This document shows, piece after piece, positions 18,393-49,423 of a DNA stretch of 64,000 nucleotides. The position numbers and the translations under genes are program-made. Location of the stretch: NCBI GenBank assembly GCA_036830315.1, contig DAISOU010000006.1, positions 1,212-65,211 of the forward strand, read 5' to 3'. Source of the DNA: Bacillota bacterium. GTDB taxonomy: Bacteria > Bacillota_I > Bacilli_A > RFN20 > CAG-288. Under the pieces are notes generated by a model. That model searched no databases. It was not told the DNA's origin and saw only the letters and a list, made by a program, of their open reading frames with translations. Numbering within the stretch: position 1 is the stretch's first letter; every line of letters starts with the position of its first letter.

Positions 18393-18405
18393 AAAAACAA
18401 TTGAT

Positions 18406-18434
18406 AAGCGCAGCTAAAAAAGCTGCGCTTTTTC
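18406..18434 (+). terminator. Rho-independent terminator
   Basis: AAGCGCAGCT-AAAAA-AGCTGCGCTT followed by TTT. Confidence 0.8.
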
Positions 18435-18540
18435 ATTGCTATCAATATGGATATTAATATCTCGCAAAAATAAGAAAAATAATTATTCCATCGGCGTTTT
18501 AAAGGAATATAATCAGGGACTAGTGAGGAATTTATCATAT

Positions 18541-20826: not shown

Positions 20827-21000
20827 TATCAAAAAAGCTGTTTTCTTTAAAAAAGCATAGTCGATAGAGATTTTTAACCGTTGTTTTATCTTGAGAGGAT
20901 CAAGAGTTTTTCAACGAACATTCAGATGAATATCGGATATGTATATTCAAATAGTTTTAGGATGCTTATCTTTTTTAAAGAAAATAGACACTTGTACATC

Positions 21001-21028
21001 TTGAAAATGAGAAAAACAAATATATAAT
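21001..21028 (+). promoter_or_regulatory. Candidate promoter of BI-1 copy B
   Basis: TTGAAA (21001-21006), 16-nt spacer, TATAAT (21023-21028). Confidence 0.45.
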
Positions 21029-21059
21029 ACAATTGTCTATTAAATATAGGAGGCTCAAA

Positions 21060-21821
21060 ATGGAGTATTACGTCTATGAAGAACCGGAAAAGAAAGCAAC
21101 TAAGATAGTCAAAGATAACGGAGTCCGTTTCTCGATGGGAAAGGTCTTGCTCTGGCTTTCGTTAGGTTTGGTTCTGACTGGTGTTGTCGCTTTGTCGATG
21201 CCTGATTTCTTATTGCTCTGCTGTGGAAACAACGCTTCTGCTTTATCGACTTCTTATACAGTCTCTTTGAGTATCGCTGTTGTAGTGATGGTATTCTCCT
21301 CTTTGCTTATGTGGATTCCAAGTTTCAAGAAGGATTCTCCCTGGACAATAGTTTCCTATGTTCTGTTTACTATTGCCATGGGTGTGGTTCTTTCCACTTC
21401 TTTCTTATGGGTTTTAGGTATTGATGACAAGGATGCCATAGCAAGCATATCCATTTCTTTTTTCATTACAGCTGCCTGCTATCTGATTTTAGGAGTGATC
21501 GGGACTGTCTCCAAAAAGAACTTCAATGTCATTACTCCCGTGATCTTTGCCTTGTTCTGGGGAGTTCTGATTCTTTCTCTTATTTCTTTCTTCCTGCCTT
21601 TAGAACCGATATATATCATCACTGATGTCATTTCCTTTGCTGTCATTCTTTTAGTTACCGCCGTCGATTTCAACAACGTAAAAAGACTGGCCTCCTGTTA
21701 TCCGTTCCACAATTCCACTTCTCTGGCTATCTATTGTGCCTATAATCTCTACCTGGATTTCATCTATATTTTTGTCAGAGTTCTCTTTTATACAGTCTTT
21801 TTTAGAAATCGTAACCGCTAG
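21060..21821 (+). CDS. Bax inhibitor-1/YccA family membrane protein, copy B (paralog of 17634-18392)
   Basis: Alignable along its whole length with copy A (for example AIYCAYNLYLDFIYIFVRVL). AGGAGG at 21048-21053 supports the ATG at 21060 rather than the TTG at 21033. Confidence 0.85.
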   Translation: MEYYVYEEPEKKATKIVKDNGVRFSMGKVLLWLSLGLVLTGVVALSMPDFLLLCCGNNASALSTSYTVSLSIAVVVMVFSSLLMWIPSFKKDSPWTIVSYVLFTIAMGVVLSTSFLWVLGIDDKDAIASISISFFITAACYLILGVIGTVSKKNFNVITPVIFALFWGVLILSLISFFLPLEPIYIITDVISFAVILLVTAVDFNNVKRLASCYPFHNSTSLAIYCAYNLYLDFIYIFVRVLFYTVFFRNRNR

Positions 21822-25262: not shown

Positions 25263-26447
25263 ATGGCTAAACAGAAGTTCGACCGTTCTAGACCGAACGT
25301 TAACATCGGTACTATCGGTCACGTCGATCACGGCAAGACTACCCTTACTGCTGCTATCACTCAGGTGTTAGCTAAGGATGGCTTAGCTGTCGCTATGAAG
25401 TACGATCAGGTTGATGCTGCCCCTGAAGAGAAGGCTCGTGGTGTTACTATTAACGCCGCCCATATCGAATACGAAACTGCGACCAGACATTATTGTCACG
25501 TCGACTGCCCTGGCCATGCTGACTACATCAAGAACATGATCACTGGTGCTGCTCAGATGGATGGCGCTATCCTTGTTGTCGCTGCTACTGATGGTGTTAT
25601 GCCTCAGACCCGTGAGCACGTTTTACTTGCTCGTCAGGTCGGTGTTCCTTACATCGTCGTCTTCCTTAACAAGTGCGATATGGTAGATGATCCCGAATTA
25701 ATCGATCTCGTTGAGATGGATGTTCGTGAACTTCTTTCCAAGTATGGCTATCCGGGAGATGATGTTCCGGTCATCCGTGGTTCTGCCTTAAAGGCTCTCA
25801 ACGGCGATGTCGAAGCTCAGAAGGCTATTGTTGAATTAATGAATGCTGTCGATACCTATATTCCTACTCCTACCCGTGATAACGATAAGCCTTTCTTAAT
25901 GGCTGTCGAAGATGTTATGACCATCACTGGCCGTGGCACCGTCGCTACCGGCAGAGTCGAAAGAGGTCTCCTCAAGCCTAACGATGAAGTTGAAATCGTT
26001 GGTATCATGGATACTCGTAAGGCTATCTGCACTTCACTCGAAATGTTCCGTAAGACTCTTGACTTCGCTGAAGCTGGTGACAACGTCGGTGCCTTGTTAA
26101 GAGGTGTCGATCGTGATCAGATCATCCGTGGTCAGGTTCTCTGCAAGCCTGGATCAGTCACTCCTCACAAGAAGTTTGAAGCCCAGGTCTACATCTTAAA
26201 GAAGGAAGAGGGTGGACGTCACACTGCTTTCACTAACAACTATCGTCCTCAGTTCTACTTCAGAACTACTGATGTCACTGGAACTATCACTTTACCTGAA
26301 GGAACTCAGATGGTCATGCCTGGCGATAACGTCTCCCTGACTGTTGAGCTTATCCATCCTGTCGCTATCGAAAACCAGACCAAGTTCTCCATCCGTGAAG
26401 GTGGTCACACTGTCGGTGCCGGTAACGTCTCCAAGCTTCTCGACTAA
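25263..26447 (+). CDS. tuf: Elongation factor Tu
   Basis: [18 protein letters not shown] and NKCD. 394 aa. Confidence 0.98.
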
Positions 26448-26466
26448 TCAGTTTTAAGAAAATTAA

Positions 26467-26497
26467 GGCCCGCCTTCAAAAGCGGGTCTTTTTTTGT
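26467..26497 (+). terminator. Rho-independent terminator after tuf
   Basis: GGCCCGC-CTTCAAAA-GCGGGTC followed by TTTTTTTGTTT. Confidence 0.8.
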
Positions 26498-26522
26498 TTC
26501 TTTTCATATATAATAGATAGCA

Positions 26523-27743
26523 ATGATCAAAAAAGTGTTTAGCGATTACGCTGATAGAAAAAACGCCAGAAAAGGTCGAAGATTTGTGGTTCTTCTCATC
26601 GATTTCTTTACGACGGTCATTTTCTCCTTTCTTATTTTCGGCGTCCTTTCCTATCCGGTCTTATCTAACCTTTCCTTTGTTGAGGAATATTCTACTAATG
26701 CGACCAAACAGGGAGAAGAACTCTATCTTCTTGTCGGTTCGACCAGACTTCAGACCTACGATAAAGAATCTTCTTCTTTAGTCAAAGTCGAAAAAGACGG
26801 TAAAAACTATATCACTTCTCTTTTGAAGACTTCCTTCTTTAAAAGCGGAGAGGATTACTATGAATTAGTCGACAACAAGAAAGTTAAGAAAGAGATTTCT
26901 GAGTCTGATACTTTCCTTTCCAGCAAGGATAACGACTCTCCAAAAGACAATCTCTCTTATTATTTTCTCAGTTTTTCTTCTGAAAACGGAATCCATGAGG
27001 TCAGAACCAGGAAGGATTTTAATTCTTCTATTTTGAAATTGGACGGCGACAACAAAGACTTGGTGACTGCTGATTTTGATATCAGTCAGGATGTCTTCTA
27101 CCTCAATTCCCAGAACAGCAATGATCTGATTTCCTATCTCAATTACGGTGAGACGGGAAAATCAGGAGAGACTTTATATAATCGTCTCCTCGATATCTAC
27201 GCAAGCGGCGTTAATGTCGGAATTAAAGAAGTGGAGACTTCCTATCAGCCCTATAAGGATGCACTTGCTCTCTTACAGCAGTATTCTGGATCTTATGCCC
27301 GATGTTTTGACGTAGCCTTCATCCTTTCCTATCTTTTGGGATTTCTTATTGTCTATCTTGTCTTCCCTCTCTGCTTCAAAAACGGAAAGACAATCGGATA
27401 TAAGTTCTTTTCGATGGCTCTTGTCAGAAACGACCTGGATAAACCTCGCTTTGTGAACTATCTTATCAAGTATTTGGTTTTATTCGTGGCTGAATTCTGC
27501 GGCGTGTTCTTCCTTCCTCTCTTTTTAGGGAGACTGAATCTGATGTCTTTTTCTCTTGTTGGCTCTGTCACTATGTTCCAGCTTCTCTTCTTCTCTTTGA
27601 TGATCGCTTTGGTTTCCTTAGTCTTCTTCTTTGTCTCCAAAGACAATCAGACCCTGAGTGAATTTGCCTCTTTGACATATACTGTCGATATCACTGAACA
27701 CGAAGACCGATTGGAAGAAGGAAAAACGATATTTGGAGAATAA
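26523..27743 (+). CDS. RDD-family membrane protein with a large insert between TM1 and TM2
   Basis: N-terminal RRFVVLLIDFF...TM1, then a ~220-aa hydrophilic insert, then TMs carrying GKTIGYKFFSMALVRND. This is the R/D/D-type pattern of RDD proteins. Confidence 0.6.
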   Translation: MIKKVFSDYADRKNARKGRRFVVLLIDFFTTVIFSFLIFGVLSYPVLSNLSFVEEYSTNATKQGEELYLLVGSTRLQTYDKESSSLVKVEKDGKNYITSLLKTSFFKSGEDYYELVDNKKVKKEISESDTFLSSKDNDSPKDNLSYYFLSFSSENGIHEVRTRKDFNSSILKLDGDNKDLVTADFDISQDVFYLNSQNSNDLISYLNYGETGKSGETLYNRLLDIYASGVNVGIKEVETSYQPYKDALALLQQYSGSYARCFDVAFILSYLLGFLIVYLVFPLCFKNGKTIGYKFFSMALVRNDLDKPRFVNYLIKYLVLFVAEFCGVFFLPLFLGRLNLMSFSLVGSVTMFQLLFFSLMIALVSLVFFFVSKDNQTLSEFASLTYTVDITEHEDRLEEGKTIFGE

Positions 27744-27744
27744 A

Positions 27745-28734
27745 ATGAACGAAACAATCCTCGAGAAGTCAGAAGAATACACTGATGTCGAATATACAAA
27801 TGCCCCACTGCATAAAAGATGGTTTGCCGGAATAATCGACATTTTCGTCATGGCTATTATCGCCCTGCTTCTTTACGGTCTTTCGATGATCGTGACTGAA
27901 AAGGTACCCGCCTATCAGAAGTTATCTACTGAGAACGATAAGATCCAGCTGGATTCAGGATTATATGTCAAAGACGGCGACAAGAACCGTCTTCTGACTT
28001 TTTATCTCGATGACAGCGAGAAGACAGACAAGGAAAAGAAAGAAGCATACAGCAAGGCTTTGGATGAATTCTATGTCAATTCTCTCTTCTTTGAAGATGA
28101 CCGGGGATCAGTTTCCTATCAGGAGAGAAAGAAGGCAGCCGTCGATGACAAATCCAATCTGGTTTTTGTTCTTTCGGGCACGGAATATGTTGAAAACGGA
28201 TATTCTGATACTATCTACTGCTCGTTCTATAAAAACGAAATCGAAAAATATGCTTCTGCTCAGCTTTCTCTTAATTCTAAGTATTCTGACAACAACAGAA
28301 TGATTGTCATCGTCTCGATTGCCGAACTCTTTATATGCGGAGCTTTTGGTTTTTCCTTCTCTTTCATTTTGATGCCTTTGTTCATCAAAAGAGGACGAAG
28401 GACAATCGGCATGTATCTCTTTAAGATCTCTCTTATCGGAGTGGATGCCCTCAATGTCAGAGGGAAGACACTTGTAGCCAGAAATCTTCTTCTTTTCTTT
28501 GTCGGCTATGTTTTTTCTGTCTTTACGGTCTTGATTCCTCTCATCGTTTCGATTACTATGATGCATTTATTTAAGACACATCAGGATTTCTTCGATTACA
28601 TAACTAATACTTATGTGGTTGATACTACAAAGCAGGACGTCTATCTTGATTTCTATGAGTATGATTCGAGAAAAGGAATGAAAAAAGAAGCTTCTATCGA
28701 AAAAGTGGATTTTAAGTTAACTGACAGAAACTGA
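27745..28734 (+). CDS. RDD-family membrane protein, second split copy
   Basis: KRWFAGIIDIF...TM1, a ~150-aa insert, then GRRTIGMYLFKISLIGVD. GGAG at 27735-27738 supports the ATG at 27745, one nt after the upstream TAA. Confidence 0.6.
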   Translation: MNETILEKSEEYTDVEYTNAPLHKRWFAGIIDIFVMAIIALLLYGLSMIVTEKVPAYQKLSTENDKIQLDSGLYVKDGDKNRLLTFYLDDSEKTDKEKKEAYSKALDEFYVNSLFFEDDRGSVSYQERKKAAVDDKSNLVFVLSGTEYVENGYSDTIYCSFYKNEIEKYASAQLSLNSKYSDNNRMIVIVSIAELFICGAFGFSFSFILMPLFIKRGRRTIGMYLFKISLIGVDALNVRGKTLVARNLLLFFVGYVFSVFTVLIPLIVSITMMHLFKTHQDFFDYITNTYVVDTTKQDVYLDFYEYDSRKGMKKEASIEKVDFKLTDRN

Positions 28735-28774
28735 TAAAACGCTTTACAATCTGTGGCATTTCAATTTGGCGGGG

Positions 28775-28803
28775 TTGATAAAAAGACCTCATACCCTTAT
28801 AAT
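28775..28803 (+). promoter_or_regulatory. Near-consensus promoter of the ABC/nuclease operon
   Basis: TTGATA (28775-28780), 17-nt spacer, TATAAT (28798-28803). Confidence 0.65.
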
Positions 28804-28825
28804 TAGTCTTACTATATATATTTAT

Positions 28826-28840
28826 ATGTAACCGCTATCC
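28826..28840 (+). promoter_or_regulatory. cre-like element in the operon leader
   Basis: ATGTAACCGCTATCC matches the degenerate cre consensus WTGNAANCGNWNNCW at 14 of 15 positions. It lies between the -10 box and the RBS. Confidence 0.3.
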
Positions 28841-28865
28841 TCAACTTATTAAAAGGGGTCAAGTT

Positions 28866-30383
28866 ATGGAAATTAAGATGAAGCATCTGACGAAGACTTT
28901 TCCAGGCAATCCGAAGAAGCACATTCCTGATACGACAGCTGTCAACGATCTCAACATCGATGTCAAGGATGGTGAACTGTTAGGTCTTCTGGGTCCTTCA
29001 GGCTGTGGCAAATCAACTACTCTCTATATGATAGCTGGTCTAAAACAACCTACCGATGGCGAAATCTGGTTTGGCGATGAAGAAGTCACTCATCTAGCTC
29101 CTGAAAAGAGGGGAATCGGCTTAGTTTTCCAAAACTATGCCTTATATCCTCATCTTTCAGTGTATGACAATGTCTCTTTCCCTCTTACCAATCTGAGAGT
29201 TGAGACTTTTGCCGTTGACCATAAACTGGTCAACATCGATACTCTTCTTGCTGTCTTAAAGGATTCTGACACCCTGATCAACATCATCGAAAAGTCAGCC
29301 TTCAAGGGCAAGATCAGCAAAGACGGTGCTTCAAGAGCTATCGTCAATCACTATCATATCGTCACAAATTCTGCCAATACTTTATTTAAGTATCATCTTC
29401 ATGATACCAAAGAAGACAGAACTGAACTTCTCAATTCCATTTGCACCCGTCTTGAAGAAGACAAAGCCAAGGAAATTGCTTCTATCAATGAAAAGTTCTC
29501 CAAGAACAAGATCGGCGTAGAAACAGCTAAAGATGATGACACGAAGAACAAGTTCAAGCTTCAGCCTCATTCCATCAACGACCATTATGAGTTCCTCGAC
29601 TATAACGGCGAGAAAATTCCTCAGAAGAGACATCTCACTAAAGATGAAATCGATTCTCTGGTTCAGGAAGCAGCCCGTCTGGTTCAGATTGAAGACTTCC
29701 TCGATCGTAAGCCCAGTGAATTATCCGGCGGTCAGCAGCAGCGTGTCGCTATCGCCAGAGCCTTAGTCAAGAAACCGAGAGTTCTTCTTCTCGATGAACC
29801 TTTAAGCAACCTTGATGCCAGACTCAGGCTTCAGACTCGTGAAGAAATCAGAAGAATTCAGCAGGAGACTCATATCACCACTGTCTTCGTCACTCACGAT
29901 CAGGATGAGGCCATGTCTATCTGCGATGATATCGTCGTCATGAAAAACGGCGTCGCCATGCAGGAAAACCATCCTCAGGAAATCTACAAGGATCCTGACT
30001 GTCTCTTTGTCGCCAAGTTCTTAGGTAATCCGCCTATCAACGTCTTTAAAGGCGAAATAAAGAATCATCAGGTCATCGTCAATGGCGAAGTCATTCTCGA
30101 AAACGAGAAACTCGCCGATAATCCTGAAGTCTTTGCCGCTATCCGTCCGGAAGGATTCTTATGTGACGGCAATGAGGGTGTTTTAACTCTTGATGTCGAC
30201 AGCATCCTGACTATGGGACGCGATATCTCTCTCGTCTGCTCAAATCCTGCCTTTGTCGGAGAAAAGATCAAAATCATTGTCGACAGCGATATCAAGGTAT
30301 CAGTCGGCAAAGTCAAATTCGGCATCCGTCCCAATAAGATTTTCTTATTTGACGGCCAGACCGAACAGAGAATACGTTTTTAG
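28866..30383 (+). CDS. ABC transporter ATP-binding protein, MalK/UgpC/MsmK type, with a ~150-aa insert in the helical subdomain
   Basis: Walker A GPSGCGKST, Q-loop LVFQNYALYPHLSV, signature LSGGQQQRVAIARAL, Walker B LLLDEPLSNLD, H-loop VTHDQ, and a C-terminal TOBE-like regulatory domain. The Q-loop to signature distance is about 190 aa, against about 40 aa in canonical MalK. Confidence 0.9.
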   Translation: MEIKMKHLTKTFPGNPKKHIPDTTAVNDLNIDVKDGELLGLLGPSGCGKSTTLYMIAGLKQPTDGEIWFGDEEVTHLAPEKRGIGLVFQNYALYPHLSVYDNVSFPLTNLRVETFAVDHKLVNIDTLLAVLKDSDTLINIIEKSAFKGKISKDGASRAIVNHYHIVTNSANTLFKYHLHDTKEDRTELLNSICTRLEEDKAKEIASINEKFSKNKIGVETAKDDDTKNKFKLQPHSINDHYEFLDYNGEKIPQKRHLTKDEIDSLVQEAARLVQIEDFLDRKPSELSGGQQQRVAIARALVKKPRVLLLDEPLSNLDARLRLQTREEIRRIQQETHITTVFVTHDQDEAMSICDDIVVMKNGVAMQENHPQEIYKDPDCLFVAKFLGNPPINVFKGEIKNHQVIVNGEVILENEKLADNPEVFAAIRPEGFLCDGNEGVLTLDVDSILTMGRDISLVCSNPAFVGEKIKIIVDSDIKVSVGKVKFGIRPNKIFLFDGQTEQRIRF

Positions 30384-30393
30384 AGTGTGAAAG

Positions 30394-31338
30394 ATGGAAA
30401 GCAAGAATAATTGGAAGGCGTGGCTCTATTTAGCACCAGTCATCATTCTGACCGCCGTCTTTACTTTTTACCCCATTATCAACACTGTCGGCATTTCTTT
30501 TCTGAAGAACTATAACTCTCTTCAGCATACTTATGATGGTTTCACCTTTGATAACTATCTGGAGATCTTAATGATCAAGCCCTTCAGATCGACTGTGGTC
30601 GGCGATGTTTTCATCACTGACTTTATTCAGGTGGCTCTGCCTAATACTTTGCTGATCACCTTTATCACTGTTCCGATCTCTATTTTCCTGGCCTTGGCTA
30701 TCGCTATCGCCTTGAACTCAATAAAAATCCTGAAGAAACTCTTCCAGACTATCTTCTTCATGCCCTATGTCACAAATGCCATCGCTATCGGTATGGTTTT
30801 CTCCGTTATCTTCGACAATAACGGTATTGTGAACTACATATTCGGCAGTGACGTTCATTGGCTGTATGCCGGAAGCGGAGCTAACCCCAATTATTGGGCG
30901 GCTTTATTTGCTCTATCGGTCTATATCATCTGGCATTCGCTCCCCTATAAGATTCTCATCTTCTTAGGCGGTCTTCAGAATATCGACAATCAGTATTATG
31001 ATGCTGCCAAAATCGATGGTTCTTCTATGATGAAAATCATAAGAAGAGTCACTATTCCTCTTTTATCTCCTCAGATTCTCTATGTCATGATCACTTCCTT
31101 TATCGGCGCCTTTAAGGAATACACGAGCGTAGTCGCTATCTTCGGAGTCGGAGGCGGATCATTTGACGGAACGACCGGTCCTACTTCGATGAAGACTGTC
31201 GCTTTTTACATCTATGATCAGATGAGTTCGACTACCACCTTGCAATATGCAGCTGCAGCGGCTGTCATTCTCTTGATTATCATTTTGATATTCACAGCTG
31301 TTCAGAAGGTTGTCGCTAAGCGGAGGGTCCATTATTAA
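30394..31338 (+). CDS. Sugar-type ABC permease (MalF/UgpA-like)
   Basis: Six TM segments and an EAA-like loop YYDAAKIDGSSMMKIIRRVTIPLLSP. Confidence 0.9.
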   Translation: MESKNNWKAWLYLAPVIILTAVFTFYPIINTVGISFLKNYNSLQHTYDGFTFDNYLEILMIKPFRSTVVGDVFITDFIQVALPNTLLITFITVPISIFLALAIAIALNSIKILKKLFQTIFFMPYVTNAIAIGMVFSVIFDNNGIVNYIFGSDVHWLYAGSGANPNYWAALFALSVYIIWHSLPYKILIFLGGLQNIDNQYYDAAKIDGSSMMKIIRRVTIPLLSPQILYVMITSFIGAFKEYTSVVAIFGVGGGSFDGTTGPTSMKTVAFYIYDQMSSTTTLQYAAAAAVILLIIILIFTAVQKVVAKRRVHY

Positions 31339-32322
31339 ATGAATAACTATCAAGCTAATGAACCAGGCAGAGCTTTAGAGCTTAATGCCTCAACTAGCAA
31401 TCTCCACCTGGTTATCAAGAACGAACATCAGTCGACTGCCGTCAAGGAGAAGGTGACGAAAGTCAATCATGTTGTCGCTCTCGTTCTCACCTATGCCTTC
31501 TTGGTTCTGGTCGCTTTGCTTTTTATCTTCCCCTTCTACTGGATGGTCATCACCTCCTTCAAGAGCGGTGATGAAATCAAAGGATTCTTGGAAGGTTATG
31601 AAGGAGTTCAGACTTTCTGGCCGATCCAGTTTGTCAATAACTACGCTAACTTAAGCAAGAAATTCGATTTCAGTACCTATGGCGGTAACACTTTGCTTGT
31701 CGGCTTCTTCTCGACTTTAGGTACATTGATTACCTGTATCTTAAGTGCCTTTGCCTTCGCCCGTCTTGACTTCAAGGGCAAGAACTTCATGTTCACTCTC
31801 TTGCTCTCCACTATGATGATTCCGGGTGAAATGATGGTTATCACCAACTATATCTCTGTCTCTAACCTTCAGTGGACTGACGGCTCTCGTACCGGCGCTT
31901 ACTTAGCTATGATCATTCCTTTCATGGTATCTATCTTCTACATCTATCTTTTGAGACAGAACTTCATGCAGATACCTAATGAATTGTATTTAGCTGCCAA
32001 AGTAGACGGCAAGTCTGACTGGCAGTATCTGTGGAAAGTCATGGTTCCGTTAGCTATGCCTACCTTGATCACTATCTTCATCCTCAAGCTGATGGGTGCC
32101 TGGAACTCCTATATCTGGCCTAACTTGATTGCCGGCGGAAACGAAGAATTCAAATTGGTGTCTAACGGTCTCAGAGATTCCTTCCAGACTGGCACCAACT
32201 TCGATGAGTACGGACGCCAGATGGCTGCCACTGTCTTAGTTACCTTACCTCTTCTTCTTGTCTTCGTTCTCTTTAGAAAATATATTATGCGCGGCGTCAG
32301 CCGTGCAGGTATAAAGGGTTGA
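31339..32322 (+). CDS. Sugar-type ABC permease (MalG/UgpE-like)
   Basis: EAA loop LYLAAKVDGKSDWQYLWKVMVPLAMP. Its start codon directly abuts the upstream stop. Confidence 0.9.
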   Translation: MNNYQANEPGRALELNASTSNLHLVIKNEHQSTAVKEKVTKVNHVVALVLTYAFLVLVALLFIFPFYWMVITSFKSGDEIKGFLEGYEGVQTFWPIQFVNNYANLSKKFDFSTYGGNTLLVGFFSTLGTLITCILSAFAFARLDFKGKNFMFTLLLSTMMIPGEMMVITNYISVSNLQWTDGSRTGAYLAMIIPFMVSIFYIYLLRQNFMQIPNELYLAAKVDGKSDWQYLWKVMVPLAMPTLITIFILKLMGAWNSYIWPNLIAGGNEEFKLVSNGLRDSFQTGTNFDEYGRQMAATVLVTLPLLLVFVLFRKYIMRGVSRAGIKG

Positions 32323-32350
32323 TCAGAAAGTTCAAATAGAGGAAACACAT

Positions 32351-33814
32351 ATGAAAAAACCAGTCTTGATGATGTTGATGGCTGTCTCTCTCATCGCTAC
32401 CGGCTGCGGTTCGGATACAAGCAGTATCACCGGTAACAAGGATAAGGTAATCACCTTCTGGCACTGTATCGGACACGATAAGACCAAGAATCTTCAGGTC
32501 ATCATCGATAAGTTCAATGACGAGCATTCCACAGCTAAAGGCGGTGACGGCTATTCTGTCACAGCTGAAAAGCTTGCCGGTGACTATGATTCTCTGCATG
32601 ATTCCGTCAAAACCAAGCTCAATGCCGGCTATGTTCCGTCTATCACCATGGGTTATCCGGATTCCTTTGCCGAATATATCGGAACTGGCGGAGCTTCCGC
32701 TTCTAAGATTCTCAAGTTAGATGACCTTATTTCCGCTGATACTACCTTCAAGACCGGCGACTTTGTCACTGAGTACTACAATGAAGGAACTGGCTATCAG
32801 TATGAAGGCACTTATTCTCTTCCTCTTTATAAGTCCACTGAAGTCATGTACTACAACATCGATATGTTCCAGGGCACTACTTTCTATAAGAACAACAAGA
32901 GTGCTACCTATGGAGCAAATAATGCCGTATTAGGCAATCCCACTACTTGGGACTGGGATACTTTTGTCTATGTCGGAAAACAGATTCAGGCTGAACTCGG
33001 CGGTTCGACTTCTGATTTCCACGCTATCGGCTATGATTCTGATTCTAACCTCTTCATCAGTCAGATGGCTCAGAGAGATATTCCCTTCACTACTGCCGAA
33101 GGAAAAGGCGAAGCACATTTCAAGTTTATCGGATCTGATGGCAATCCTGATGCCAGATTGTCTTCCTTTGCTCAGAGTGTTTATGATTTAGCCATTGATA
33201 ACAATGACAACAAGGGAACTGTCTTAGTCACTAAGGGCTCCTATGGTTCTTATGCCTCTGACTTATTCAAGAAGAAGAAGGTCATGTTCACTATCGGTTC
33301 CACCGGCGGTTCTGCCTATAACGAACCTAACGGTTCCTTCACCTGCGGTCTTTCTTCAGTTCCTTCCTATAACAACAACAAGAAGTACATCATGCAGGGT
33401 CCATCTCTCTGCTTCTTTGATACCAAGGACACCGCCAAGGAAAAGGCAGCCTGGGAATTCTATTCCAAGTTTGTCTCCGATGCTTCTTTGAATGCTGCCT
33501 TAGCTCTTGAAAACTCCTACGATCCTATTAAGACCGCTTCTTATGAAACTGACAATTACAAGGAGTGGACCTCTTTAGGTGTCACTTCCGAAGGTGTTGA
33601 TGATACTTCAAAACAGCTCCAGTATCGTATCCCTAACCTCACTAAGACTTTGAAAGACAATTATATGACTTCTCCTGTCTTTATCGGTTCTAGCGCTGCC
33701 AGAACCGAAATCGGAAACATCATCAAGTACGCTAAGGAAAAAGGCGGAAAGGTCAATGATGCTATCAAACAGGCTTATACCAACTGTGTATTAGCTTCTA
33801 CCGATAAGGCATAA
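32351..33814 (+). CDS. Lipoprotein, family-1 extracellular solute-binding protein of the ABC importer
   Basis: Signal peptide plus lipobox MKKPVLMMLMAVSLIATGC (Cys19). 487 aa with an SBP_bac_1-like composition (ITFWHCIG...). It sits directly after the two permeases. Confidence 0.85.
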   Translation: MKKPVLMMLMAVSLIATGCGSDTSSITGNKDKVITFWHCIGHDKTKNLQVIIDKFNDEHSTAKGGDGYSVTAEKLAGDYDSLHDSVKTKLNAGYVPSITMGYPDSFAEYIGTGGASASKILKLDDLISADTTFKTGDFVTEYYNEGTGYQYEGTYSLPLYKSTEVMYYNIDMFQGTTFYKNNKSATYGANNAVLGNPTTWDWDTFVYVGKQIQAELGGSTSDFHAIGYDSDSNLFISQMAQRDIPFTTAEGKGEAHFKFIGSDGNPDARLSSFAQSVYDLAIDNNDNKGTVLVTKGSYGSYASDLFKKKKVMFTIGSTGGSAYNEPNGSFTCGLSSVPSYNNNKKYIMQGPSLCFFDTKDTAKEKAAWEFYSKFVSDASLNAALALENSYDPIKTASYETDNYKEWTSLGVTSEGVDDTSKQLQYRIPNLTKTLKDNYMTSPVFIGSSAARTEIGNIIKYAKEKGGKVNDAIKQAYTNCVLASTDKA

Positions 33815-33825
33815 AGGAGAAAAAA

Positions 33826-35607
33826 ATGAGAAAAAACAAGTATCTGATTGCGTTATCCCTCATCTCTTTCTTAGGCACCTCTTTGGCATCCTGTCAACAG
33901 CCTTCTTCCGTTGATACTTCTTCCTCGTCTTCCTCTTCCACTGTTATCGAAGATGTCGATGTAGTCGCTAACACTCACTTAAAACTCGATGCTGATATCT
34001 TCACCAAGGTCATGACGAATAAGACTTCAGCTGCCTATGACAAGACCAAAGCTGATTTCAATGCCACCGGCATTGAAAGAATGCTGACAGATTCTGACTA
34101 TGCTCCGAATAAACAAGATGCTGTATTCACCAATTATGTCGATGGTGATACTACTCAGCTGACTACCTATAACGGCAATTATACTGTCAAAGTCAGATAC
34201 CTGGCTGTCGATACTCCCGAATCCACTTCCGAGATTGAAGAGTGGGGCAAATCTGCTTCTCTTTTCAACAAGGGAATTCTCAGCAAAGCCAAACATGTCA
34301 TCATTCAGTCGGCTAAATCTGCCAAGACGGGAAAAGAAGCTATCCCTGATATCGACACATATCAAAGATCTTTAGCCTATGTCTGGTATTCCAATGCCGA
34401 TACTCCGACTCAGGATACTTTCAGAAACCTGAATCTGGAATTGGTCTATAACGGCTATTCCATCTTCTCTGGTGAACAAAGCGAGATGGATGCTGATTTC
34501 TACAATGCTTTCATGCAGGCTAATGACATCGCCAGATATAAGAAGCTTCATATCTATACCGACAAGGTCAATTCTGACGAACATTATTATTATGATGCCC
34601 CTCAGAAGTTAGGTCTTGATACTCTTTACAATGAAGACTATTACACCAATACTGCTGCCGGCGGATACAAGTATTCAACTTATTGCGATGAGTACACTCA
34701 CTGGACTTTTGAAGGTGTTGTCAGCCGTAAGGTCGGAAACGCTTTCTATATCCAGGATCAGATTGACGGAAAGTATTATGGCCTTTATGTCTTTACTTTG
34801 AGAAGTTATGCTCCTATTGTCATCGGAAACAGAATCAAAGTAACTGGCGTCTTGTCCTTCTATGGCGGCGCTTATGAATTAAGTGGTGTCTCCTATTCTT
34901 TCTTCAATCATGCTGAAGGAGATATCGAATACGTCACTGATACTGACGGCAAGAAAGTCACTGAGACTGTCACTCCTGTCGAAGTAACAGCCGGTCAGAT
35001 GGCAAGCGGCGATTATCCCTGTGTCTTAGTCAAACTCAAAGGCACTGGAACCGACAATAACATTTACTTCAACACCTATTTCACCAAGTATGGTTCAAAT
35101 TCCTTTGGCGGATCTGAAGAAATCAACATGTATAACAGTGCCTATCCTTTCTACAACACTGATAACAAGATTGTTGTCTTTGGAAAACTTGGCTCTGATA
35201 CCGCCAATGTCACTTCTTCTGACTCTGACGATATCATCCGTGTCGTTGTTCCTTCTGATATCGTCTTATCAGATCCTGTCGATGACAAGGCTATCGTCAC
35301 TTACAAATACTTTACCGGAACCTTAAATTCAGCAGGTAAAGAAGGCTATCATTACTATGTTGACAAGACAGTCGAAAACAATGCCTTGTTGGCATCTCAG
35401 TTAGAAGACGGAACTAAAACCTATGATTCCTTAGATGAAGCAACTAAAAAGGCTGTAACCCGTACTTCTTTTGTCAGAAAGAAAGTCAATGACGCTGTCG
35501 GTATTGCCCAGAACTATATTTCCGCTTCCGGTAAGACCGCCAAGTATTCTCTCAACATCTGCTCTGCTCGCAATGACTTTGATAATTTCGCTGAGGTCGG
35601 TGAATAA
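33826..35607 (+). CDS. Lipoprotein with a staphylococcal-nuclease (SNase/thermonuclease) domain plus an OB-like C-terminal module
   Basis: Lipobox LGTSLASC (Cys23). SNase catalytic pattern YVDGDTT...VRYLAVDTPES...YQRSLAYVW. Downstream OB-like segment FEGVVSRKVGNAFYIQDQIDGKYYGLYVF...IKVTGVLSFYGGAYELS. Confidence 0.85.
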   Translation: MRKNKYLIALSLISFLGTSLASCQQPSSVDTSSSSSSSTVIEDVDVVANTHLKLDADIFTKVMTNKTSAAYDKTKADFNATGIERMLTDSDYAPNKQDAVFTNYVDGDTTQLTTYNGNYTVKVRYLAVDTPESTSEIEEWGKSASLFNKGILSKAKHVIIQSAKSAKTGKEAIPDIDTYQRSLAYVWYSNADTPTQDTFRNLNLELVYNGYSIFSGEQSEMDADFYNAFMQANDIARYKKLHIYTDKVNSDEHYYYDAPQKLGLDTLYNEDYYTNTAAGGYKYSTYCDEYTHWTFEGVVSRKVGNAFYIQDQIDGKYYGLYVFTLRSYAPIVIGNRIKVTGVLSFYGGAYELSGVSYSFFNHAEGDIEYVTDTDGKKVTETVTPVEVTAGQMASGDYPCVLVKLKGTGTDNNIYFNTYFTKYGSNSFGGSEEINMYNSAYPFYNTDNKIVVFGKLGSDTANVTSSDSDDIIRVVVPSDIVLSDPVDDKAIVTYKYFTGTLNSAGKEGYHYYVDKTVENNALLASQLEDGTKTYDSLDEATKKAVTRTSFVRKKVNDAVGIAQNYISASGKTAKYSLNICSARNDFDNFAEVGE

Positions 35608-35882
35608 TGTCTGAGAATCTTGATGATCGTACCAGAAGCCAAAAGCTTCACCAGGAAAGCCAGAAGGAATATGACAAAGCTCAGAATGCGCTTTGCTTCG
35701 TGGTTTTAGGTGCTATCTTTCTAGCTATCGGCATCATCTTCATTTTCTTGGCAAATAAGAGAGAGAACAATTTAGGACTGATAGCAGGCGGTGGCTTCTT
35801 GATCTATGGCGGAATCAAATTCTTCATCGCCTTCAAAAACAGACGCGTAATTCTCAGAGAAATCAACACTCTGAAGAAATAA
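35607..35882 (+). CDS. Small 2-TM membrane protein (91 aa)
   Basis: Two hydrophobic helices (ALCFVVLGAIFLAIGIIFIFL and GLIAGGGFLIYGGIKFFIAF). Its ATG shares one nt with the nuclease stop (TAATG), implying translational coupling. Confidence 0.55.
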   Translation: MSENLDDRTRSQKLHQESQKEYDKAQNALCFVVLGAIFLAIGIIFIFLANKRENNLGLIAGGGFLIYGGIKFFIAFKNRRVILREINTLKK

Positions 35883-35900
35883 AGAAAGGAAATTGCTTAT

Positions 35901-37796
35901 ATGAAAAAACAGCTCACATTAGGTATTTTAGCTTTGTTATCGTTCGGTTTGGTTTCTTGTGCCAATAATACCCCTTCTTCTTCTGTTTCCAGTACTACAT
36001 CTCAGGAGCAGACATCTCAGCCAAGCTCAGTAAACAATGACGATCTTTCAATTACATATAGCGGTGATGCCAAAGTCGGTTCAAGCATAACCTTTGTTTC
36101 AAAGTTCCAGAATTCTCCTATTGTTGATCAGACTGCTGTTGTCTATACTGCTAATCCTGCTGATTCAATGACAATCACTGGCAACAAAGCTGACTTATTG
36201 AAGAGCGGCGATGTCACTGTCACAGCTACCTATACTAAGGACGGCACTACTTTGACTAAAACCTTAACTATCACTATTGAAGAGGGTGTTGTTATTTCTA
36301 CCATTGCTGAAGTTAAAACCAAGAAAGCTGGTGATGTTGTACTTATTCGCGGTGTTATAACTGCTTCTGCTGGAACTTCAGCCTATATCTCTGATGCAAC
36401 TGGCGGTATCTATATTTATAATTTCTCCTATGATAAAGATGATACGGCTATAAAGAACAAGAGATTCACTGTCGGTCAGAGTGTTGAAATGTGTTCGGTA
36501 GTCGCCTTCCATGGAGGTGCCATCCAGCTTTCTAACTACAGCGGCGGAAAAATCGCTAACACTTATGCTAAGACTATTGACACTGAAATCACTCCTAAGG
36601 CTCCGACTACTTTAAATGAAACCGGAATAGCTTCTTTAGATAAGGATTTAGGTGTTGGTGAATTATATTCTTTTGCTGCTACTTATGTCAGTGGTGCACC
36701 AGTAGCCAATGTAAGAGGAACTGTCAACTTCAATATTGGCTCTACCAAAGTTGCTATGGTTACCAATGGTTCAAGCTCAAAAATGTATGATCCTGATATT
36801 TCTGATTTGATTTCCACTTTCAATAGTCTTGATTTAAAGGCGGGTGATATGGTTACTATTACTTCTCCATATATGGGACAATATTACAACGTCAATCAGT
36901 TTGCTTATTATAGCAGTGGCACCAAAATGATTAAAAAAGCTCTTGCTATCTCTGCATCTGATAACCATTATGTCGGTCAGACTGTTACTTTAAGTGGTTC
37001 TTATGCAGGTGAAGCTGCTACTGGAACGACTTTTGCTATCACTGCCGGCTCCGATTTAGCCACTTTGACTGGCTCATCTTTGGCTATCACAGGCGCTGGT
37101 GATATCACTGTTGAAGGCACCTATGTCTTGGATAGTGTTACTTACAAGAAGTCTATAACTATCACTGCCAGGGATTTAAGTGCTGTTTCCACAGTCGCTG
37201 CTGCCAAAGCCCTTGAAGACGGCGAATATGTCACTGTCGAAGGCAAGATTGTCGCTGACAATGGAAAAACCAGTTTTGTTGTCGCTGACGCCACTGGCGG
37301 ATTCTTTGGCTTTGTCGCAGATCCTAACACTTCCGATACTGCCTTAACCAATAATAAAGTTGTGTCTGATTCAACTGTGAAAATCACTGGTGTTATTTCC
37401 ACTTATAATGGCGTTAAAGAAATCACCGTCAAACATTCAGAAGCCGGTACTATCCCTGCTGTAATTGCAACTACAGCTACTGAAGTCACTCCTTTGGCTA
37501 CCGAGAACTTAGCCGATGAAGCGGGCTTTAAAGCCAAGGCTTCTGCTGCTCTTGCTTTGACAAATGGCGGAAACATGTATTCTTTAACAGCAAAGTTCAA
37601 GTCTCTTAATAAAGCCACTGCTACTTTCACTATCGGAGCTACTGAGTTCTTTGTCTATTATCCGTCTGAAGCTGCAGCTACCGGCGCTAACTTAGTTGCT
37701 GATTCCAACTATAACATTGTTGGCGCTTATCAGATCTATAGTTCTAAGGTTGAATTTGTTCTGATGGTCAATGGCTGTTCAGTTGTTGCCGCCTAA
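35901..37796 (+). CDS. Surface lipoprotein with duplicated Ig-like (Big_2-like) plus OB-like modules
   Basis: Lipobox FGLVSC (Cys20). Two Big_2-like segments (ITYSGDAKVGSSITF...VTVTATYTKDGTTLTKTLTITI and ISASDNHYVGQTVTL...ITVEGTYVLDSVTYKKSITITA). Each is followed by an OB-like segment (VVLIRGVITASAGTSAYISDATGGIYIY...VVAFHGGAIQLS and YVTVEGKIVADNGKTSFVVADATGGFFGF...ITGVISTYNGVKEIT). Confidence 0.7.
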   Translation: MKKQLTLGILALLSFGLVSCANNTPSSSVSSTTSQEQTSQPSSVNNDDLSITYSGDAKVGSSITFVSKFQNSPIVDQTAVVYTANPADSMTITGNKADLLKSGDVTVTATYTKDGTTLTKTLTITIEEGVVISTIAEVKTKKAGDVVLIRGVITASAGTSAYISDATGGIYIYNFSYDKDDTAIKNKRFTVGQSVEMCSVVAFHGGAIQLSNYSGGKIANTYAKTIDTEITPKAPTTLNETGIASLDKDLGVGELYSFAATYVSGAPVANVRGTVNFNIGSTKVAMVTNGSSSKMYDPDISDLISTFNSLDLKAGDMVTITSPYMGQYYNVNQFAYYSSGTKMIKKALAISASDNHYVGQTVTLSGSYAGEAATGTTFAITAGSDLATLTGSSLAITGAGDITVEGTYVLDSVTYKKSITITARDLSAVSTVAAAKALEDGEYVTVEGKIVADNGKTSFVVADATGGFFGFVADPNTSDTALTNNKVVSDSTVKITGVISTYNGVKEITVKHSEAGTIPAVIATTATEVTPLATENLADEAGFKAKASAALALTNGGNMYSLTAKFKSLNKATATFTIGATEFFVYYPSEAAATGANLVADSNYNIVGAYQIYSSKVEFVLMVNGCSVVAA

Positions 37797-37897
37797 TATC
37801 AGTAATACAATTAAGCTAGTTTAAATCGGACAGACTTATTTATTAACTTGACTATTAACCCGAAAACAACAATAATAGATAAGCTTGTCTGGTTTAT

Positions 37898-37988
37898 GGA
37901 GCAATACCCAAGTTGGTGAAGGGGCGTCCCTGCTAAGGACGTAGTAGGAGTAATCCTAGCGAGAGTTCAAGTCTCTCTTGCTCCGCCA
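37898..37988 (+). tRNA. tRNA-Ser (anticodon GCU), class II with a long variable arm and an encoded CCA
   Basis: Acceptor GGAGCAA/TTGCTCC. Anticodon stem CGTCC/GGACG with loop CTGCTAA. Variable arm TAGGA-GTAA-TCCTA. T arm GAGAG-TTCAAGT-CTCTC. Discriminator G plus CCA. Confidence 0.93.
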
Positions 37989-38001
37989 TGTAGTTTGTAT
38001 G

Positions 38002-38033
38002 CGAACACCTGAAAAGGTGTTCGTTTTTATTTG
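38002..38033 (+). terminator. Rho-independent terminator after tRNA-Ser
   Basis: CGAACACC-TGAAAA-GGTGTTCG followed by TTTTTATTT. Confidence 0.8.
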
Positions 38034-38257
38034 TGCGGTCTGAAAAATGTTGATTAACGTGTAGGTTAGTGTAGGTAAAAAATGTCCATCTCTTCAAAGA
38101 AAAAGTCGAGTCCTTCTTAAAACGTCCTCTATAAGGCGTGAATTAAGTCTGATGCCTTGGTTTTTCTGTGGTGAGTCGAGACCCGCCAGAGGCGGATTTT
38201 GGCGGTGATATAGAACTTCTTGTAGGGGTAAGTCTTAGCAAGGTTTTGTTTTAACCC

Positions 38258-38285
38258 AAATGAAAAGACAGGGGCAAGGCCCCTG
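38258..38285 (-). terminator. Terminator of the AraC-family gene
   Basis: CAGGGGC-N3-GCCCCTG stem. On the minus strand it is followed by TCTTTTCATTT. Confidence 0.65.
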
Positions 38286-38316
38286 CCTTTGTCGATTAAG
38301 AGACTCTGCTTACAGG

Positions 38317-39195
38317 CTATTTGTTCTTTATCGGAATCCAGATAAAGGAAACATCATCTTTTGAGCCATTGTTTTTCATCGCATAACATTCGATTGTCAT
38401 AGGATCGGCGATATCATAGTCAGGATTGCCGGGAATCCATTCTTCGAATATTTTAGTGTTCACAGACTGAAGAGCCTCAGGAAGGGGTCCTACGCACTTA
38501 AATTTGGCCCATTTCGAGGCTTTGATCTTATAGATCTTCATTCCTTCAGGTATCTTACCGCCTTTATAGGGACCGGCGATGATGTATTTGAAGTCAGTGG
38601 TGTTATTGTTGTCGGCCAGACAGACGCCGTACATGCCGATACTGTTTTCTCTGATGGCTTTGTCTACTTCTGTCTCGTTTCCCTTGTTTTCACAATGCTT
38701 GGTTATAAATTCTTTCCAGAACAGAGGAATAGTCTTATAGCTGTTTTCAAACTTGGCTGTCTTTTCATATCCGATTATGGAAAACTCCTTCATCTCTTCT
38801 ACGATGTAATCCATTTGATTACCTCCTTTGATACTGATTGAGACCTGTAAAGGAAGGAAGATCTTTATCTTTGATGGTTCTTTTCTTAGGTCGTGAGGTG
38901 AAAGAGAATGAAAACGTGTGAAGGCTTTAGTAAAGCTTTCTGGTGTCTCATAACCATATTTATAGGCGATATCAATGATCTTATCCTTTCCTTTGATGAC
39001 ATCAAAAGCCGAAAGACAGAGGCGTCTGTTTCTGACGTATTCGCCAAGTGTATAACCGGTTAAGATGGCAAATCCTTTCTGCAGATAAAAAGGGGAGACA
39101 CCGTTCTTTCTGCAGATGACAGAAAGATCGATGTCAGAAGTCAGATTAGACTCGATGTATTCGACAGTGCCTTTGATTGTAGCAAGCCAATCCAT
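38317..39195 (-). CDS. AraC-family transcriptional regulator with a GyrI-like effector-binding domain
   Basis: N-terminal AraC double HTH (VSPFYLQKGFAILTGYTLGEYVRNRRL...IAYKYGYETPESFTKAFTRFHSLSP). The C-terminal ~160 aa are GyrI-like (MDYIVEEMKEFSIIGYEK...WIPIK). Confidence 0.85.
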   Translation of the reverse strand: MDWLATIKGTVEYIESNLTSDIDLSVICRKNGVSPFYLQKGFAILTGYTLGEYVRNRRLCLSAFDVIKGKDKIIDIAYKYGYETPESFTKAFTRFHSLSPHDLRKEPSKIKIFLPLQVSISIKGGNQMDYIVEEMKEFSIIGYEKTAKFENSYKTIPLFWKEFITKHCENKGNETEVDKAIRENSIGMYGVCLADNNNTTDFKYIIAGPYKGGKIPEGMKIYKIKASKWAKFKCVGPLPEALQSVNTKIFEEWIPGNPDYDIADPMTIECYAMKNNGSKDDVSFIWIPIKNK

Positions 39196-39527
39196 TACCC
39201 TTCTTCCTCTCTTGATGACAAGGATATTGTAGTTTCATAGATAGTGATATTCCTGTCATTATTTGCTGTCTTTTGTCTTTTTTGATTATAACATGCTAAA
39301 TGATTTCTTTCTTGAAAGATATTGGTCTTTAAAACGATTGAAAAAACGGCATATATTCAGTTTTTAAGCTGATTTTTCTGTAAAACCCCTTTCCAGCTTA
39401 CATTTTTGTTCAAAAAATGGTATACTAATGCAGATAAGACGAGCAACTGTTGACTTCAATTTATAACGGTTAACCCGCTTAGAACTAAGCCGAGTATTTT
39501 TTTGTCGGACAGAAAGGAGGCGCTGCC

Positions 39528-49220: not shown

Positions 49221-49423
49221 AAAATCCCGGTGATGCTACTTAAGTATCAAATTCCTCTGTTCTTTTTTCTGAAAACCGCATGTGTCTTTTCTTTGTTTCT
49301 TATAAGTTCGCTTTATTATTCAATTCCTCTCTTTTTGACTATCTGTTCTTCCACTAGACAAAAACCCTTTTATCTATGGTAAAATAGGTGAACATAAAAA
49401 GAATTTTACCAAGGAGGCGTGAA

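Follow-up and report, generated by a model that had tools for sequence, protein, structure and literature searches.

The window analysed here is a 64,000-nucleotide (nt) stretch of contig DAISOU010000006.1 (assembly GCA_036830315.1, Bacillota bacterium), from an uncultured, animal-gut, RFN20-like lineage of Bacilli, going by the labels of metagenome-assembled genomes (MAGs). Seven consecutive open reading frames (ORFs) spanning 28866-37796 encode a sugar-type ATP-binding cassette (ABC) importer with its substrate-binding protein (SBP; genes 1–4), a SNase-type nuclease lipoprotein (gene 5), a small membrane protein (gene 6) and a large lipoprotein (gene 7) which shares OB-fold modules with the nuclease. 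Together these genes are predicted to form an operon for scavenging nucleic acids at the cell surface. The genes and their domains, the promoter, the tRNA and the terminator described below all lie on the + strand.

Organisation of the operon

The original prediction had listed seven same-strand genes in a given order and spacing, and both proved exact in the ORF list, with intergenic spacers from gene 1 to gene 7 of 10, 0, 28, 11, −1 and 18 nt. A Shine–Dalgarno-like purine run precedes each of the seven start codons. The near-consensus promoter was also recovered as a sigma-70-like TTGATA-17-TATAAT site (28775..28803, 11/12 match), 62 nt 5′ of the first ATG and inside a 131-nt gap 5′ of gene 1; sites of 11/12 quality number two in total across 9.9 kb when both strands are counted. 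An Rfam scan of 26000-39500 matched only a tRNA and revealed no riboswitch or leader element, and GC content is uniform over the region. The operon (28866-37796) is identical to a metagenome contig (ENA ERZ724032 NODE_310) and matches MAG GCA_002399505.1, where an apparent disruption of gene 6 was rejected as a scaffold gap of 185 N.

The end of the transcript was less straightforward than predicted. A terminator had been placed after the last gene and nowhere before it; a terminator scan indeed found no convincing terminator inside the operon, but the strong one does not follow gene 7. This intrinsic terminator (38001..38034, 10-bp stem and T-run), the first strong one past the promoter and the sole strong one found, lies directly 3′ of a tRNA-Ser(GCT) gene (37898..37988) located between gene 7 and the terminator, 101 nt past gene 7. 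Since this tRNA intervenes with a promoter-like site of its own (TTGACT-17-AATAAT, 37848-37876), the claim needs qualifying, and read-through from the operon into the tRNA, with a shared terminator, is possible. Terminator-like matches within the operon have weak stems and tails, and were dismissed owing to their poor placement and to a total count (n = 10) near that of shuffled sequence (7.1 ± 2.8). Internal promoter-like sites were likewise dismissed as badly placed and only in modest excess over shuffles (28 vs 17.9 ± 4.6). With its tight or overlapping junctions, single strong promoter and lack of a strong internal terminator, the operon is probably transcribed as a single unit from the promoter at 28775.

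One of these internal sites, a 10/12 match at 35579-35608, could be read together with the small, fast-evolving family of gene 7 (86 cluster representatives at E ≤ 1e-3 among 1.84 billion) as a sign that genes 5–7 are an independent unit which happens to lie downstream of the transporter. We regard such a chance neighbourhood as very improbable, since the spacers concerned (11, −1 and 18 nt) hold no terminator, the promoter-like site overlaps the start codon of gene 6 and belongs to a class only modestly above shuffled expectation, and the same gene order recurs in lineages as far apart as RFN20-like Bacilli, Izemoplasmatales and Clostridia.

The predicted surface nuclease

Gene 5 (33826..35607) encodes a 593-amino acid (aa) SNase-OB lipoprotein with the lipobox LASC, identified by Pfam, structural model and homologues. 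As predicted, it carries a SNase domain with the catalytic pattern preserved: PF00565 matches residues 122-243 (E 2e-11), the catalytic domain extends over about aa 83-243 (34072..34554), and the motifs DGDT, RYLAVDTPE and YQRSLAYVW are present. Residues D108, R124, D129, T130, E132, Y179 and R181 correspond to D21, R35, D40, T41, E43, Y85 and R87 of the Staphylococcus aureus nuclease, and the catalytic and Ca2+-ligand residues are invariant or >90% conserved in 51 homologues. The AlphaFold2 (AF2) model is of good quality (pLDDT 87.5, pTM 0.81) and superimposes on the S. aureus nuclease with a target-normalised TM-score of about 0.78. From its residues the catalytic site is intact, and the protein is a predicted active nuclease. 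Micrococcal or SNase-type enzymes leave 3′-phosphorylated mono- and dinucleotides.

Two further regions follow the catalytic domain. An OB module (aa 283-362, 34672..34911) is supported by hhalign and an OB hidden Markov model (HMM), and residues 292-353 form a five-strand barrel in the AF2 model. A search of this protein against BFVD gave weak OB-type matches only (the ExoVII large-subunit OB, LEF-3 and SSBs), and a Foldseek search of the full protein against the PDB was swamped by variants of the S. aureus nuclease (251 matches, E ≤ 0.001), leaving the C-terminal half uninformed. The remaining ~230 aa (aa 363-593, 34912..35604) are beta-rich, confidently modelled and clade-specific, with invariant motifs such as YGGSEE-N-YN--YPFYNT-N. 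This region matched no family in Pfam or the PDB when searched as a 12-sequence profile, nor any other module of these proteins in hhalign, and it may represent an undescribed domain family.

OB-fold modules and the accessory proteins

Gene 7 (35901..37796) encodes a 631-aa lipoprotein (lipobox LVSC) which, on the combined results of hhalign, AF2 and Foldseek, consists of a duplicated unit of an immunoglobulin (Ig)-like domain, an OB module and a second barrel. The first unit comprises a Big_2-type Ig-like domain (aa 44-127, 36030..36281; found by hhalign, with Big_2/aBig_2 matched in homologues), OB module 1 (OB1; aa 128-222, 36282..36566; hhalign, model and Foldseek) and barrel X1 (aa 223-340, 36567..36920), which pairs with OB1 in the manner of a HIN/RPA-like tandem OB. 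The second comprises another Ig-like domain (aa 341-424, 36921..37172; hhalign), OB module 2 (OB2; aa 425-520, 37173..37460) and barrel X2 (aa 521-631, 37461..37793; hhalign with X1). OB2 scores just above the cut-offs of Pfam BOF (PF04076, 26.7 bits vs 25.8) and of the NCBIfam stress_OB_fold model (NF033674, 36.1 vs 35); tRNA_anti-codon falls under its cut-off in the window proteins and is matched in homologues.

An OB-like signature had been noticed three times across the two lipoproteins, and hhalign bears this out at 95–99% between copies: OB1 and OB2 of gene 7 align at 99.4% (E 2e-21), and the OB module of gene 5 aligns with them at 95% (E 4e-8) and 96.6% (E 6e-10), respectively. The two Ig-like domains (97%) and the two X barrels (96%) of gene 7 also match each other. 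By these profile alignments the triple signature is real homology and not chance.

The model of gene 7 (pLDDT 80.9, pTM 0.44) shows five-strand barrels by DSSP, its low pTM fitting a beads-on-a-string protein. Its top Foldseek matches in the PDB (prob 1.0) were HIN-200 proteins (p204, AIM2, IFI16 and p202), RPA70, LEF-3, CST, BRCA2 and RADX, and several of the matched HIN-200 structures are complexes with double-stranded (ds) DNA. The HIN-domain matches (prob 1.0, target-normalised TM-score 0.43-0.47) each cover about 225 aligned columns, so that a tandem OB unit is the preferred reading of each OB-X pair. The modules had been suspected to be OB folds, with carbohydrate-binding or unrelated beta-sandwiches as the alternative; the BOF match, the AF2 models and Foldseek point to OB-type barrels. 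From fold and homology, the OB arrays of genes 5 and 7 are likely to bind DNA or RNA.

Between the two lipoprotein genes, gene 6 (35607..35882) encodes a 91-aa protein with two transmembrane (TM) helices, its start overlapping the gene 5 stop by 1 nt (TAATG). It is without a family assignment, yet in the close clade it always lies between the nuclease and OB-lipoprotein genes (31-58% identity), and it is perhaps an accessory membrane organiser.

The transporter and its binding protein

Genes 1–3 encode the core of the importer. Gene 1 (28866..30383) is a MalK/UgpC-type ABC ATPase of 505 aa (ABC_tran, E 2e-37) with Walker A at residue 43, the Q-loop at 87, LSGGQ at 286, Walker B at 306 and the H-loop at 343. 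It resembles UgpC, GlcV, PotA and MalK, every score falling below the equivalog cut-offs, including the UgpC-like match (E 4e-103) under that of NCBIfam. The Q-loop and signature lie ~197 residues apart, compared with ~50 in MalK, which indicates an insertion of ~145 aa between them (aa ~113-258, 29202..29639), within the helical subdomain of the ATPase. Distant ATPase homologues align on both flanks of this insertion (gene 1 residues 1-128 plus 253-504) and are shorter, at 353-369 aa in Izemoplasmatales and Clostridia compared with 481-590 aa in the close clade, hence the insertion is clade-specific. The UgpC-like ATPases of Mycoplasma are likewise unusually long. Genes 2 (30394..31338, 314 aa) and 3 (31339..32322, 327 aa) encode permeases of the UgpA/MalF-like and UgpE/MalG-like types, respectively, both matching BPD_transp_1.

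Gene 4 (32351..33814) encodes the substrate-binding lipoprotein (487 aa), with a less canonical lipobox, IATGC. Searched as a single sequence it was uninformative, matching no Pfam family and the PDB only weakly (E about 0.05), and only a profile built from 34 homologues from syntenic loci proved informative. Among these homologues SBP_bac_8 was detected in 19 of 34 and SBP_bac_1 in 13 of 34. Lipoprotein_X (MG185/MG260) was matched weakly in one of the 34 (E 6e-5) and not in gene 4 itself; membership of the Mycoplasma MG185/P80/MslA family is thus not claimed on so few homologues. Against the PDB the family profile is closest to the 7C0F series (E 1.8e-33), followed by Escherichia coli UgpB (4AQ4 and 6X84, E about 1e-28), a marine UgpB (9LFF, E 9e-27) and the glycerophosphocholine (GPC)-binding UgpB of Mycobacterium tuberculosis (6R1B, E 1e-17), with maltose, trehalose and oligosaccharide binders at E 1e-12 or worse.

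Table S5 in the supplementary information of PMC12718374 lists 7C0F as the Thermus binding protein for uridylyl-3′-5′-phosphoguanosine (U3G), hereafter U3GBP. Two Tyr and two Ser residues on the phosphate are strictly conserved in proteins binding sn-glycerol-3-phosphate (G3P), GPC and U3G and not in glucose binders, while a glycerol clamp of two Trp is specific to UgpB (PMC12718374). We aligned the E. coli UgpB sequence, verified against 4AQ4 (E 2e-287), to the gene 4 profile. Residues Y42, S121, S247 and Y323 of UgpB align with Y79, S162, S317 and Y390 of gene 4, which are invariant in 34 of 34 family sequences, and the clamp is absent, W169 and W172 being replaced by Y228 and N233. Judging by the E. 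coli structure and by consistent numbering offsets, the four E. coli residues are presumably Tyr64/342 and Ser143/266 in the numbering of PMC12718374.

With U3GBP and UgpB as its nearest solved relatives, an invariant Tyr/Ser quartet and no Trp clamp, gene 4 is by sequence a member of the phosphoester-binding UgpB/U3GBP subcluster of CUT1 binding proteins, and is neither UgpB nor the ordinary sugar binder whose discovery would have counted against the original prediction. As the phosphate-coordinating residues are kept and the clamp is not, a phosphoester such as a 3′-nucleotide, dinucleotide or short oligonucleotide is a plausible cargo, which we propose tentatively.

The main rival is that the transporter is a Ugp-like importer of G3P or glycerophosphodiesters, with the nuclease alongside as part of a phosphorus-acquisition regulon. 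The Mycoplasma homologues usually carry this annotation, genes 1–4 are best matched in NCBIfam by UgpC, UgpA, UgpE and UgpB, UgpB ranks second among the solved relatives of the SBP family with its phosphate ligands conserved, MPN134-136 of M. pneumoniae have been drawn as a putative G3P ABC system (PMC3178575), and Bacillus subtilis nucleases reclaim extracellular DNA (eDNA) for phosphate (PMC11458576). We nevertheless consider it unlikely. The NCBIfam scores fall far under the equivalog cut-offs (33.4 bits vs 411 for gene 4 against the UgpB model NF008211), the Trp169/Trp172 clamp is missing, the nearest solved relative is a dinucleotide binder with a larger pocket rather than UgpB, and the operon has no GlpQ-type phosphodiesterase.

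CUT1 systems mostly import sugars, and the SBP_bac_8 and SBP_bac_1 matches among the homologues would also suit an importer of unphosphorylated carbohydrate (deoxyribose or ribose, nucleosides, or an oligosaccharide). Under this view the surface proteins would serve adhesion, remodelling of biofilm eDNA or escape from host DNA traps; Ig-like and OB domains occur in adhesins and S-layer proteins too, and S-layer proteins were among the Foldseek matches of gene 7. Nucleoside or nucleobase transport has moreover been suggested for the Izemoplasmatales SBPs (Wasmund et al., PMC8289736). This explanation seems improbable, given that the invariant phosphate quartet is reported to be absent from glucose-type binders (PMC12718374), that the maltose, trehalose and oligosaccharide binders trail U3GBP and UgpB by at least 20 orders of magnitude, and that the operon lacks a nucleotidase to produce nucleosides.

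Conservation of the module

A scan with SNase family patterns, using one genome per species, returned 80 loci which, with one added locus (L004), gave 81 non-redundant loci; these were examined by tblastn of the seven window proteins, ORF maps and an OB-module HMM. Transporter and nuclease had been expected to co-occur in relatives, and the exact order ATPase-permease-permease-SBP-SNase was present in 59 of the 81 species-level loci. The remainder were truncated upstream (n = 10), held partial transporter-like matches (n = 3) or had no transporter gene at all (n = 9). The nine transporter-free loci are generic SNases from staphylococci, actinobacteria and others, all without an OB module, and the three partial loci likewise lack one. 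Nearly all of the 59, by comparison, have an OB module within the nuclease protein and a downstream protein of 600-1650 aa with one to five more. The OB modules that the original prediction took for an expansion are real but not special to this genome; outside Mycoplasma, the module usually takes this form.

The carriers, by label, are Bacilli bacterium, uncultured Mollicutes UMGS171, Clostridium sp. CAG:568, Ca. Onthovivens, Izemoplasmatales (including UBA5603, L060), Acholeplasmatales and a few Clostridia. Izemoplasmatales loci (L030-L067 and L077) show the same order with OB modules downstream, and their large downstream proteins also match aBig_2, tRNA_anti-codon/tRNA_anti_2 and the lamin tail domain (LTD), the last in Izemoplasmatales homologues only. 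Only the close clade (L004-L026) has the 2-TM gene, the insertion in the ATPase and the C-terminal domain of the nuclease. This strict synteny with a nuclease weighs against an unphosphorylated-sugar importer, and the adjacency of SBP and SNase genes in 59 loci of distant lineages exceeds what shared membership of a phosphorus regulon would demand.

Tandem duplicates of SBP or SNase genes occur within the module at L026, L040, L042, L045, L050, L054 and L059; L026 (CAYJLA010000006.1) has two SBPs and two SNase-like genes, and L040 and L054 have two SBPs each. Such duplication suggests a diversified ligand or substrate range. Directly 5′ of the operon promoter, two overlapping genes encode RDD-family membrane proteins (26523-27743, 406 aa, and 27733-28734, 333 aa). 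Nearly all close-clade loci have the pair at this upstream site, with identity falling as low as 28-30% (L022, L025 and L026), and it may be functionally linked to the operon rather than merely syntenic. EF-Tu and EF-G precede it wherever a close-clade contig extends so far.

A putative nucleic-acid scavenging module

We consider it reasonably likely that the operon encodes a surface module which captures extracellular DNA or RNA, cuts it and takes up the fragments. The OB arrays, that is the two Ig-OB-OB′ units of gene 7 and the single OB module of gene 5, would hold extracellular DNA or RNA at the surface, where the SNase domain of gene 5 would cleave it. Gene 4 would then capture a phosphate-bearing product, most likely a 3′-nucleoside monophosphate, a dinucleotide or a very short oligonucleotide, and pass it on for import by the two permeases with the MalK/UgpC-type ATPase. 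Such a module would serve nucleotide salvage and/or phosphorus, nitrogen and carbon nutrition in genome-reduced Bacilli related to Mollicutes. The tether, cut and import interpretation offered originally thus gains support, as a hypothesis, from the in-silico tests designed to refute it. Lipoprotein anchoring is plausible, as a prolipoprotein diacylglyceryl transferase (Lgt) is encoded in the window (10353-11408). A PNP_UDP_1 nucleoside phosphorylase (49388-50134) and a GMP synthase (62315-63856) are also encoded there, consistent with nucleotide salvage.

Several points weigh against this interpretation, beginning with the function of the module in this organism, which is deduced from sequence. 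The ligand call for gene 4 needs the family profile, the protein alone having no Pfam match and weak PDB matches, and its four conserved phosphate residues would fit glycerophosphodiesters equally well; the link to the Mycoplasma binding proteins is limited to Lipoprotein_X in one of 34 homologues. OB folds can bind partners other than nucleic acids, the BOF/YgiW family is without an established ligand, and both the TM-scores to HIN domains (just 0.43-0.47) and the pTM of the gene 7 model (0.44) are low. The operon encodes no nucleotidase or phosphatase, and dephosphorylated cargo is possible if such enzymes are encoded elsewhere.

A broader claim, which we hold as possible and no more firmly than that, is that the transporter represents the founding member of a widely distributed class of ABC importers for phosphorylated nucleic-acid fragments (not nucleosides), fed by a surface OB-array DNA receptor and a nuclease. 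If true, this would explain nucleotide uptake without dephosphorylation in genome-reduced Bacilli and, by extension, mycoplasmas, and would provide the orphan Thermus dinucleotide-binding SBP subcluster with a role in physiology.

For genome-reduced bacteria, extracellular DNA is a major source of nutrients and nucleotides, and what the nuclease-linked ‘sugar-type’ ABC transporter carries has been a standing question since the association was first noticed in mycoplasmas. The placement of the SBP in the phosphoester/dinucleotide-binding subcluster leads to a specific and cheap ligand experiment. The homologues use the standard genetic code, so the SBP, nuclease and OB modules can be expressed directly in E. 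coli and the ligand question is readily testable. Our analysis further shows how widely and uniformly the module occurs beyond Mycoplasma (in RFN20-like gut Bacilli, Izemoplasmatales, Acholeplasmatales and some Clostridia), identifies OB arrays as its regular component there, and describes the tandem-OB (HIN/RPA-like) architecture of the accessory lipoprotein.

Two other loci in the window deserve mention. At 45313-46965 a tyrosine recombinase (Phage_integrase with a SAM-like N-domain, XerC/D-like) carries a HAD-family hydrolase domain at its C-terminus (550 aa in total), a fusion also called in two relatives (L002 and L004). Within 17634-21821, two Bax1-I family membrane paralogues flank a BspA-type surface protein of 796 aa with leucine-rich repeats (LRR_5, E 7e-86).

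Comparison with known systems

The concept of binding, cutting and importing DNA has already been published for Mycoplasma and Izemoplasmatales (PMC3585158, PMC4045577, PMC8289736) and the present operon is another instance of it, hence its novelty is lower than the original prediction suggested. Single elements of the operon also have counterparts elsewhere. B. subtilis YhcR is a Ca2+-dependent, sugar-non-specific nuclease of the cell surface with OB folds and a SNase-type domain, and serves to reclaim eDNA (PMC11458576, PMC4118848). Other OB-bearing surface nucleases akin to it are SWAN of Streptococcus sanguinis and ExeM of Shewanella. YhcR is said, in the 2004 work of Oussenko et al., to be sortase-anchored (LPXTG), with a 5′-nucleotidase domain and an N-terminal OB. 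It has no co-encoded ABC importer, whereas gene 5 has a lipobox anchor, places its OB after the nuclease domain, and showed no nucleotidase or metallophosphatase domain in domain searches and no LPXTG among its motifs. Gene 4 has the Tyr/Ser/Ser/Tyr phosphate positions in common with the Thermus thermophilus protein 7C0F (Chandravanshi et al. 2021, as cited in PMC12718374) and with UgpB (4AQ4), but differs from both in its low identity, a C-terminal extension of ~80 aa and its predicted lipid anchor.

The Mycoplasma loci compared were MAG_5030(P80)-MAG_5040-MAG_5050-5070 of M. agalactiae, MslA of M. gallisepticum, MBOVPG45_0307-0311 of M. bovis, MPN133-136 of M. pneumoniae and mhp379 of M. hyopneumoniae. 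In M. agalactiae the SNase MAG_5040, located between the SBP-like P80 (MAG_5030) and the ABC genes on one polycistronic RNA, is an active nuclease with a proposed role in supplying the transporter with nucleotide precursors (PMC3585158), which bears out the arrangement that the original prediction described for mycoplasmas. The SBP-like homologue MslA of M. gallisepticum binds both single-stranded and dsDNA, according to work reported via PMC4045577, and an explicit bind-cut-import model was published for it (PMC4045577) and repeated in reviews (PMC9740415, PMC12115388). Common to these operons and ours are a surface SNase lipoprotein beside a MalK/UgpC-type ATPase and two CUT1 permeases, and a solute-binding-type lipoprotein gene directly 5′ of the nuclease gene (here by 11 nt). 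The order is circularly permuted, being SBP-SNase-ATPase-permease-permease in Mycoplasma and ATPase-permease-permease-SBP-SNase here. OB folds go unmentioned in PMC3585158 and PMC12115388; in these operons the SBP-like MslA itself is credited with polynucleotide binding. Relative to Mycoplasma, the 2-TM gene is an addition, and the present organism uses the standard genetic code, unlike the hosts of the Mycoplasma operons.

The ‘DNA-degradation loci’ of Izemoplasmatales (Wasmund et al. 2021, PMC8289736) encode extracellular nucleases, ABC transporters with nuclease-adjoining SBP homologues, and a large secreted protein that bears nucleic-acid-binding and lamin-tail domains; in cultured X. coldseepsis zrk13, DNA induces a DNA-degradation cluster that includes a thermonuclease and ABC transporters (PMC8397711). 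The core of ATPase-permease-permease-SBP-SNase-OB protein is shared with many of these genomes, including UBA5603 (L060). The Izemoplasmatales loci are larger, with several nucleases, 3′-5′ exonucleases, phosphohydrolases and phosphate transporters, and their large protein also bears nuclease and lamin-tail domains. Domain searches of the seven window genes found no exonuclease, phosphohydrolase, phosphate transporter or lamin tail; in place of these extras the operon described here carries the clade-specific C-terminal domain of the nuclease, the 2-TM protein and the ATPase insertion.

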